Positions 31,135 to 31,991 of a DNA stretch of 64,000 nucleotides are shown here, piece after piece. The DNA lies in the NCBI GenBank assembly GCA_964478755.1, contig CAYZJP010000003.1, positions 7,477 through 71,476 on the forward strand, written 5' to 3'. Position 1 is the first letter of the stretch, and each line of letters starts with the position of its first letter. The position numbers and the translations under genes are program-made. This stretch comes from an uncultured Klebsiella sp. (GTDB taxonomy: Bacteria; Verrucomicrobiota; Verrucomicrobiia; Limisphaerales; SXTU01). Below the pieces are notes generated by a model. That model did not search any database. It was not told the origin of the DNA and saw nothing but the letters and a program-made list of their open reading frames with translations.

Positions 31135-31153
31135 TTCTGAGCAAGAAAGCCTT

Positions 31154-31915
31154 GTGAAAACTCCATTCAAAATCGAGCGTGTTTTCAACACTACAGATGC
31201 AATTGGAATGCTACTCAACTTGAGAGCAGACGGCTATTGGTCTTTTCGGGGGCATAGGAATCACCGGTGGGGAGTCGGACCTCATCATATGCCGAAGTTG
31301 AAGGACGAGACCGAAAAAGAACTACACATCATCTTAGAGACGCTACGCCTGCAGTTTGTTAAACGCTGTAAGGAATTCAACGAATTCGAGTTGGATGAAC
31401 ACGACTACTGGCAGACTGTGTTCTACGCTCAACACTACGGTTTAAAGACTAGGTTGCTTGATTGGACAAGTAATCCGCTTGTCGCCCTCTACTTCGCAGT
31501 TGAAAATGTGTTGAACACAGAGAACGACGAAAACACTTGTGGATGCGTCTGGGCAATCAAAGTCCCAGAGTCCAAATGGTTCAATTTCTCCTCACTACCA
31601 GGCTATGGAGGAAGAGACGAGGAGAAGTGGCGGCTTGCTAGTTGGATAATGATTAACCCTCCACTAATTACAGATAGGCTGATAAGGCAGAGTGGCAAGT
31701 TTTCATACCATCCATCACGAGATGACAATGACATTTCAGTTCTGCCACGGGCCTGCGGTGAACAAATGATTAAAGTCATTATTGGTGACGAGTCGAACAA
31801 TCCGGCGGCAAGAATACGACAGGAATTGGGCATTATGAACGTCCATCACGCCTCACTCTTTCCTGACCCGGGCGGAGTGGCGCAGTTCATGAACAAACAA
31901 TGGCCTCAGTTATGA
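31154..31915 (+). CDS. FRG-domain protein, on a low-GC single-gene island
   Basis: [34 protein letters not shown] and [11 protein letters not shown] match the FRG domain pattern as I remember it. AT-rich codon usage (AAA, GAA, TTA, AGA) unlike the flanks. The start is GTG at 31154 or ATG at 31208. The upstream part of the track ORF (30812-31134) is an out-of-frame overlap with the DUF1501 gene. Confidence 0.75.
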   Translation: [253 protein letters not shown]

Positions 31916-31991
31916 GGGGCAAGCACTCACTACAGCAACTGCAATTACGTTCAAGTTACAGCCGTAGTGTTTTCCTACAGGTGCGCTGAAT

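Follow-up and report, generated by a model that had tools for sequence, protein, structure and literature searches.

Our comparative analysis revealed that a single gene coding for an FRG-domain protein interrupts a conserved cluster of five genes in the 64-kb stretch of verrucomicrobial DNA analysed here (the whole of which is referred to below as the window), and that this gene is a lineage-specific insertion of essentially one open reading frame (ORF). We regard its horizontal acquisition as almost certain. The protein is, as judged from its sequence, an additional verrucomicrobial member of the known and experimentally uncharacterised FRG / PDC-S15 family. The explanation that accounts best for the entire set of observations, namely that an essentially ORF-sized piece of foreign DNA with one gene would have entered the spacer that follows the DUF1501 gene, bringing along a stand-alone FRG effector, appears fairly probable. 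The locus represents a very clean single-gene horizontal acquisition: the foreign DNA is ORF-sized, each of its borders can be located to a few tens of bases, and dozens of relatives show the empty site.

Insertion of the FRG gene into the DUF1501 cluster

The five-gene cluster around the insertion (Table 1) is conserved in Verrucomicrobiota, in Chthoniobacteraceae and their relatives, to which the genome of the window belongs, as well as in Planctomycetota, with identities between DUF1501 orthologues of 85-95% in the former phylum and 63-78% in the latter. Scanning the DUF1501 protein against one genome per species yielded 80 loci, and the FRG gene was absent from all of the approximately 60 that are syntenic, including five whose DUF1501 protein is 94-95% identical to that of the window. 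In these relatives the DUF1501 gene and the next gene are normally separated by tens to about 150 nt (median 99 nt in the 62 loci with both flanks). The absence of the gene from about 60 loci that carry the usual spacer of about 100 nt thus indicates a lineage-specific horizontal insertion, in agreement with the original prediction, which had been made from the letters of the window, had described a foreign acquisition into a conserved PVC cluster and had proposed this comparison of synteny as its check. At the nucleotide level, the closest FRG-less relatives are homologous to the window as far as the stop codon of DUF1501, and homology is regained within the codons for the signal peptide of the gene downstream. 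An 80% identical homologue of the FRG gene is similar in nucleotide sequence within the ORF only, beginning near codon 8 and extending to the stop, and the flanks are unrelated.

Table 1. Positions of the inserted gene, its conserved codons, its spacers and the surrounding features in the window.
Feature	Position	Strand	Remarks
tRNA gene	8361-8436		Sole tRNA of the window
Sigma-70-like site	29347-29374		Before the 112-aa gene
Conserved first gene of the cluster, 112 aa	29399..29737	+	Upstream of DUF1501 in 71 loci
DUF1501 gene, left flank	29755..31134	+	Pfam PF07394, E = 2.2e-96
Low-GC inserted segment, 857 nt	31135..31991	.	Separates the DUF1501 stop from the next conserved gene
Upstream spacer, 19 nt	31135..31153	+	Too short for a promoter of the FRG gene's own; read from sequence
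FRG-domain gene, 253 aa	31154..31915	+	GTG start, TGA stop, no visible signal peptide
Pfam FRG-matched region, residues 29-120	31238..31513	+	Includes F31-R32-G33 and D103-W104
R32 codon	31247-31249	+	F31-R32-G33 motif
D103 codon	31460-31462	+	D103-W104
Q179 codon	31688..31690	+	RxxRQSGKF motif; third family-wide invariant polar residue, in both alignments
Downstream spacer, 76 nt	31916..31991	+	GC 0.487; imperfect inverted repeats, no terminator- or attC-like structure
Conserved secreted protein, 832 aa, right flank	31992..34490	+	After DUF1501 in 62 related loci; weak Pfam match only
Big_2+PSCyt2+PSD1	34501-36948	+	Pfam, synteny
PSCyt1+WD40	36970-38460	+	Pfam, synteny
IS200-like Y1 transposase	41503-41955		Nearest mobility gene

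The inserted segment differs sharply from its surroundings in base composition. Its GC content is 46.9%, compared with 64.2% in the rest of the window (z = -6.4; all windows of 857 nt lying outside the segment have a mean of 0.641, an sd of 0.027 and a minimum of 0.550). In windows of 200 nt, GC ranges from 0.455 to 0.505 across approximately 31100-31999 and from 0.60 to 0.70 on both sides, and the segment forms the deepest GC dip of the 64 kb; elsewhere, no 600-nt window falls below 0.533. The codon usage of the FRG gene deviates as well: its GC3 is 0.52, as against 0.78-0.85 in five neighbouring genes, and its CAI of 0.382 is the lowest among the 37 genes of the window (z = -4.2; mean 0.676, sd 0.070 and minimum 0.528 in the 36 others). 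Hence, the mid-40s GC between flanks above 60% and the foreign codon usage, which had been claimed by eye, persisted when windowed GC and codon-adaptation profiles were computed. The borders required some correction. The drop is as sharp as predicted, but it begins at the DUF1501 stop codon itself (TGA, 31132-31134) and not 19 nt after it, 19 nt being the distance from this stop to the GTG; the recovery takes place near the next gene, as stated, but about 30-40 nt inside it, among its signal-peptide codons (roughly 32020-32035), and not exactly at its ATG. In four other loci, too, the FRG gene has a GC content below that of the flanks, as is expected for a frequently transferred gene.

No integrase or transposase gene was found within about 9.5 kb of the FRG gene, the nearest mobility gene being a transposase 9.6 kb downstream (Table 1), and the search for flanking target duplications and terminal inverted repeats returned only short matches of low identity at chance level; the original prediction had likewise reported no integrase, transposase or target-site duplication. 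The integrase, att/tRNA site and direct repeats of classical genomic islands and integrative elements are absent here. The segment resembles integron cassettes in that it is a promoter-less, ORF-sized unit in the orientation of the host genes, but it has neither an attC-like structure downstream nor an integron integrase, nor a flank in common with the closest homologue. In the attC-like search the 3' spacer folded with the same energy as its shuffled versions (z = -0.01), a search of it against Rfam gave no match, and its comparison with the flank of the 80% identical homologue detected no similarity and no common cassette borders. The adjacent small partner gene that characterises type II toxin-antitoxin systems is missing, as the 19-nt and 76-nt spacers contain no ORF and no neighbour recurs beside the gene in other genomes. 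The foreign DNA may have arrived by illegitimate recombination or by recombination through homology in the flanks, and not by means of a dedicated integrase.

Promoter-like or terminator-like sites were not detected on the + strand of the segment with consensus signals, which may not apply to Verrucomicrobiota, and the only sigma-70-like site of the region, a weak match with 9 of 12 positions, precedes the 112-aa gene at the beginning of the cluster. Judging from the absence of consensus signals, the FRG gene would be transcribed by read-through from the promoter of the cluster, and transcription of the downstream cluster genes would not be interrupted by the insertion.

The FRG protein, its family and its predicted fold

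The FRG gene is the sole plausible gene within the inserted segment. A mechanically called ORF (30812-31915) overlaps the end of the DUF1501 gene in another frame, and the real start is the GTG at 31154, with which the protein begins, in alignment, where the two closest homologues are annotated to begin, P0002 (80% identical, 254 aa) and P0003 (78% identical, 256 aa). The gene call present in the database (P0001, 208 aa, from M46) is too short and drops the FRG motif. An exact database look-up of the 253-aa protein returned no match, because public gene callers start at M46.

Both the Pfam FRG family PF08867 (69.6 bits against a cut-off of 25, E = 4.6e-19, residues 29-120) and the PADLOC PDC-S15 model PDLC04938 (E = 1.3e-39, residues 24-249, profile positions 60-269 of 276) match the protein. 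These HMM searches, which had been proposed together with the prediction, confirm the FRG-domain identity that had been assigned from the translation, and the peptides quoted in its support, RLIRQSGKF among them, are all found in the protein. Thirteen further PDC-S15 models match as well, as does PHROG 4962 (E = 3.3e-32), which is listed with function unknown (PHROG); an NCBIfam search with the protein gave no match. An exhaustive profile search retrieved 26,423 cluster representatives at E <= 0.001 and 12,297 at E <= 1e-10. The majority of these representatives are 230-290 aa long and are matched along their full length, and such end-to-end matches indicate that the conserved unit is the whole 250-aa module and not only the 94-position Pfam domain. 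The window gene thus adds a verrucomicrobial member to a family of about 26,000 clusters (50% identity) that is a defence candidate and a predicted NADase similar to ADP-ribosyltransferases (ARTs).

The (F/Y)RG motif of the FRG family is represented in the window protein by S30-F31-R32-G33. Residues R32, G33, D103, W104 and Q179 are invariant in both the 78-sequence and the 111-sequence family alignments, and in the latter, more divergent one the only invariant positions are these five and F114. The protein keeps all 16 invariant positions of the 78-sequence alignment and the nearly invariant ones as well.

The original prediction stated that FRG-domain proteins have no established biochemical function, which holds true with regard to experiments; a published prediction, however, exists. 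According to two sources (PMC9503650 citing Burroughs & Aravind 2020; bioRxiv 10.1101/2024.07.30.605764), FRG has been grouped with the ART superfamily and regarded as a possible NADase effector, an assignment made by profile-profile methods that are more sensitive than an HMMER-level search. Our HMMER-level searches did not reproduce the link of FRG to ARTs: none of the ART-clan Pfam families matched any of the 78 FRG family members at E <= 10, and a sequence search of the PDB with two profiles returned no solved structure and only marginal matches to MntR.

AlphaFold2 modelled the FRG protein as one compact alpha/beta domain (mean pLDDT 94.4, pTM 0.91), in which the first strand (residues 6-10) is predicted with high confidence and Q179 is located just ahead of strand 181-185. 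The structure-based comparison that had been suggested for the protein was carried out with Foldseek and gave nothing significant in either the PDB or BFVD. The best non-ribosomal PDB matches, with E values of 0.07-2 and TM scores of 0.2-0.33 that are not significant, are all ART-fold toxins: RES (9r35, 6gw6), ParT (6d0h, 6d0i), exotoxin A domain III (1aer) and cholera toxin A1 (1s5b, 2a5g). The Arg on an early strand (FRG), the polar DWTSNP at a strand-helix junction and the Gln of RQSGKF before a later strand may correspond, in their order, to the classical ART motifs, of which there are three. Within a putative ART-superfamily fold, R32, D103 and Q179 would likely make up the active-site core, for which they are our candidates. 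A catalytic Glu is typical of many ARTs, whereas the invariant third residue of FRG is Gln; this residue and the non-significant fold matches (best E = 0.07) are points against the ART reading. NAD+-dependent chemistry of the FRG protein, which has been predicted in the literature and with which our own structure comparison agrees weakly, we hold to be possible rather than probable.

The RES/MbcT-type and ParT toxins belong to the ART superfamily, in which the FRG protein is placed by the published prediction, and they are among the top structural neighbours of its model, at a non-significant level. They differ from it in several respects: the FRG protein is without a cognate antitoxin, is about 100 aa larger, has Gln in place of the catalytic Glu and shows no sequence-profile link to these toxins. 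RES toxins are paired with Xre, and ParT is paired with ParS.

Homologue contexts and possible roles

Among the ten homologue neighbourhoods with usable flanks, six or seven contain genes of defence, toxin-antitoxin systems or mobile elements, and in the remaining three or four the homologue stands alone between housekeeping genes, without defence genes, as it does in the window. In the case of the 80% identical homologue, the FRG gene is immediately preceded by genes for a class II pAgo and a SIR2_2 protein. Other homologues are accompanied by a Cap4 nuclease with AAA_15 and a helicase, by an adjoining pentapeptide-TIR protein with GmrSD, HNH and phage portal genes nearby, by IS110 and Mu-type transposases, by AbiJ and TIR genes nearby, or by MazE-Fic, HNH_2 and a UvrD-type helicase nearby. 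No neighbour family recurs among the 142 nearest neighbours of 53 loci, the commonest having 4 members, which suggests that the FRG gene acts alone. In a crude count of PADLOC models matched at E <= 1e-10, which involves redundant models, carries no enrichment statistic and draws on neighbour summaries counted per family and not per locus, the FRG neighbours (142 proteins, 45,957 residues) match 152 models and control neighbours of DUF1501 clusters (130 proteins, 45,873 residues), a set that differs in taxa, match 62. The matches of the control are mostly generic, such as methyltransferase, IscS-like and sigma-54 activator models.

More distant members of the family (<35% identity) are carried by mobile genomes: the proteins occur as single-gene morons in P2-like phages, and the genes are also present on 262 plasmids, of which 199 are conjugative. 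In SEN8 the FRG gene (gp17) is located between gpS-like and gpV-like genes, and in P22H1 (gp44, in which residues 191-281 form the FRG domain) it follows the replication gene close to the right end. The window insertion is similar to these P2-like prophage morons in that one foreign gene is wedged into a conserved array. It differs in its chromosomal location within a metabolic cluster as opposed to carriage by a phage, and the phage FRG proteins, besides their low identity, are longer by an N-terminal region of about 190 aa (PHROG 4962).

PDC-S15 is listed by PADLOC as a single-gene "phage defence candidate" (PADLOC), and in one preprint it was among the top machine-learning predictors of phage infectivity in Pseudomonas aeruginosa, which is a correlative result. 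The window gene shares with PDC-S15 the near full-length HMM match, the stand-alone organisation without a conserved partner, the patchy distribution and the frequent presence of defence, toxin-antitoxin or mobile neighbours across the family; in contrast, it is itself located outside any defence island, alone in a conserved cluster of housekeeping type with no mobile element nearby. The conflict-related role that had been proposed from the sequence is consistent with the PDC-S15 match and with the majority of homologue contexts, which provide circumstantial support. The survey of homologue neighbourhoods, proposed earlier as a check, gave a divided picture, with three or four contexts free of such genes and with a comparison of sets that are not taxon-matched. 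On the basis of these associations we lean cautiously towards a role of the FRG gene in conflict or defence.

As the most likely model, the FRG protein may function as a single-protein NAD+-dependent abortive-infection effector, a proposal in which the defence part is drawn from genomic association and the chemistry from the published prediction. Such a stand-alone effector would normally be inactive and would use NAD+ once an invader is sensed, either depleting NAD+ or ADP-ribosylating a target, upon which the infection would be aborted. A toxic NADase without an antitoxin or evident regulator needs a putative autoinhibition, and this point speaks against the effector model. If the family is shown to be anti-phage, loci of this type would demonstrate that islands and mobile elements are not the only places for defence genes, which can also travel within conserved clusters.

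It is somewhat unlikely, yet deserves consideration, that the gene was acquired horizontally and is not directed against phages, coding instead for a selfish or addictive toxin-like protein, an inter-bacterial effector or a regulatory NAD+-dependent enzyme that persists because it is cheap in a tolerant spacer. The isolation of several homologues among housekeeping genes and the description of PDC-S15 as "still uncharacterized" (PMC12482510) fit this possibility, against which stand the PADLOC candidate listing and the defence genes beside several other homologues. A toxin-like gene would be at home in a spacer that in relatives collects ParE, MNT-HEPN and AbiEii, that is, selfish genes as much as defence genes, but the short spacers of the window hold no antitoxin-like partner ORF and the family has no recurrent neighbour, while an exported effector finds neither a signal peptide nor a secretion-system context to rely on.

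That the gene is a passenger in decay, without remaining function, is very unlikely. The lack of a promoter of its own and the shortened public gene call from M46 could be taken as signs of decay, but the reading frame is open over its full length from a GTG in agreement with the starts of the homologues, none of the 16 invariant positions has been lost, and the structural model is confident (mean pLDDT 94.4).

The variable junction downstream of DUF1501

Among the junctions of the cluster, the one downstream of DUF1501 is the most tolerant of insertions. Of the 62 related loci, 9 have a spacer of more than 500 nt here, and in 7 it is longer than 1 kb; for the other three junctions of the cluster, lengths above 500 nt were recorded in 0 of 71, 4 of 50 and 0 of 24 loci. 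Several of the enlarged spacers carry genes of toxin-antitoxin or conflict type that were confirmed with Pfam: a ParE toxin and an HNH nuclease in L053, a nucleotidyltransferase and HEPN pair (MNT-HEPN) in L069, and an AbiEii toxin in L038. A beta-carbonic anhydrase is found at this position in L004 and a secreted protein without assignable annotation in L007. In the sister genome L005, whose DUF1501 protein is 94% identical, the spacer holds a low-GC insert (0.49-0.58) that differs from the one in the window, and neither of its two ORFs is matched by Pfam. The recurrence of different inserts indicates that insertions are tolerated at this junction and that small cassettes of selfish or conflict genes are acquired there repeatedly. 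The conservation of the cluster was correctly predicted, whereas the placement of the gene inside an operon calls for a qualification, as the insertion occupies the most insertion-tolerant junction, which may be a boundary between two transcription units and not the interior of a tight operon.

The presence of real and different insertions at the same site in relatives also bears on whether the arrangement might be an assembly or binning chimera, which we consider highly improbable. The window probably stems from a metagenome-assembled genome, and the FRG gene is known from just two contigs, one of NCBI and one of Logan, which are not independent if they derive from the same run; nevertheless, the arrangement is 100% identical over 6.4 kb in two different assemblies, the separate one being of run SRR12313479, and a chimera would need two breakpoints in one spacer of about 100 nt, with the flanks intact and exactly one complete ORF in the same orientation between them. 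The notion of an old native component of the cluster, with a composition due to functional constraint and with subsequent loss in relatives, can practically be dismissed: the lower GC of FRG genes relative to their flanks elsewhere is readable as a property of the family, but independent losses would be needed in each of about 60 loci in two phyla, by which synteny effectively refutes this notion, the GC3 of 0.52 as against 0.81 elsewhere is a synonymous-site signal and not one of amino-acid constraint, and the closest homologues (80%, 78% and 66% identity) are located in unrelated low-GC contexts.

With horizontal insertion into a tolerant spacer as the preferred reading, a more far-reaching scenario can be formulated, in which the junction would be a small, integrase-independent hotspot where unrelated promoter-less conflict cassettes are captured again and again and expressed from a housekeeping promoter, and the FRG protein an NAD+-dependent abortive-infection effector that stays silent without an antitoxin. 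In its full extent this scenario is speculative and clearly unlikely. The variable spacer constitutes a small natural experiment on where cassettes are tolerated, and it is the one aspect that is perhaps worth a systematic survey.

Two further cassettes at this junction that had been annotated by eye could not be confirmed: the one in L062, taken for Rpn-like, has no Pfam match, and the one in L076, taken for a Y1 transposase, scored 20.2 bits, which is below the cut-off. REP-like palindromes were observed at the junction in L003 and L014, and palindromes of the same type flank the Y1 transposase of the window.

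Variability of the spacer downstream of DUF1501

As revealed by our comparison of related loci carrying the DUF1501 cluster (L003-L082), the spacer 3' of the DUF1501 gene, in which the FRG-domain gene of the window resides, exceeded 500 nt in 9/62 loci, versus 0/71, 4/50 and 0/24 at the remaining cluster junctions. The content of the enlarged spacers ranged from ParE and HNH proteins to a beta-carbonic anhydrase (Table). Furthermore, the DUF1501 gene was found as a tandem duplicate 5' of the gene for the 832-aa secreted protein in two planctomycete loci, its copies sharing 70-76% identity with the query.

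Several MAG records with this typical PVC cluster (L004, L006, L003 and L075) bear the name Klebsiella, Proteobacteria or Akkermansia muciniphila in their titles. These titles conflict with the gene content of the records and with their 85-95% identity to Verrucomicrobiota/Chthoniobacteraceae loci, and are probably taxonomic errors.

Repeated and mobile elements

An IS200-like Y1 transposase gene of the window (region 41266-42222) is bracketed by three palindromic REP-like units, CCCAGGGCAACGCCCTGGG, and lies in a mild dip in GC content (0.565). The arrangement resembles a REP-associated tyrosine transposase accompanied by its REPs. The same REP type was detected in the spacer between DUF1501 and the next gene in two relatives (L003 and L014). 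In L003, L004 and L006, three of the closest relatives, a second palindromic element, CATGATTCTGTG...CACAGAATCATGG, directly precedes the 832-aa gene; the search of the window for this element, with 1 mismatch permitted, returned 0 matches.

Within the 64 kb, three copies of the 10-mer AACACTACRG are present, every one of them in the low-GC island, against an expectation of 0.04 from whole-window shuffles. This motif was picked post hoc, only after being noticed, so that its significance is overstated. Conservation of the 10-mer was not found in the 80% identical FRG homologue (P0002). A 154-aa ORF in the window's second-deepest GC dip (0.533) aligns to the AcrB/RND transporter model (1021 positions) over positions 760-889 only and probably represents a fragment of a gene or the remnant of a pseudogene.

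Table. Features located in the window and in related or homologous loci
Feature	Locus	Position	Strand	Remarks
AACACTACRG 10-mer	window	31187-31196	+	inside FRG coding sequence
AACACTACRG 10-mer	window	31431-31440	+	inside FRG coding sequence, frame differs from 31187-31196 copy
AACACTACRG 10-mer	window	31962-31971	-	inverted copy, 3' spacer of FRG gene
REP-like units	window	41266; 42016; 42204
IS200-like Y1 transposase gene	window	41503-41955	-	Pfam Y1_Tnp, E = 2.9e-22
154-aa ORF	window	54181-54645	+	AcrB/RND transporter model, E = 2.8e-27
CATGATTCTGTG...CACAGAATCATGG element	L006	~4000-4110
CATGATTCTGTG...CACAGAATCATGG element	L003	~8020-8110
CATGATTCTGTG...CACAGAATCATGG element	L004	upstream of 11366
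DUF1501 tandem duplicate	L018	6242-9028
DUF1501 tandem duplicate	L023	2978-5775
Enlarged DUF1501 spacer	L053			ParE+HNH
Enlarged DUF1501 spacer	L069			MNT+HEPN
Enlarged DUF1501 spacer	L038			AbiEii
Enlarged DUF1501 spacer	L004			beta-carbonic anhydrase
Enlarged DUF1501 spacers	L005, L007, L062			unannotatable ORFs
Pentapeptide-repeat + TIR gene	L085	8874-9998
Pentapeptide-repeat + TIR gene	L214	1252-2289

Start and neighbours of the FRG gene

The public gene call for the FRG gene (P0001, region 31154-31915) starts at M46 and yields a protein of 208 aa in which the invariant FRG motif is lost. Comparison with homologues and a structure model support GTG 31154 as the true start. Near the FRG genes of two unrelated homologue loci, a protein combining pentapeptide repeats with a TIR domain (ThsB_TIR/TIR_2) is encoded, adjoining FRG in one locus and located 5.7 kb upstream in the other (gene end to FRG start). 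With only two cases, too small a number to judge by, this protein may be a recurrent FRG neighbour.
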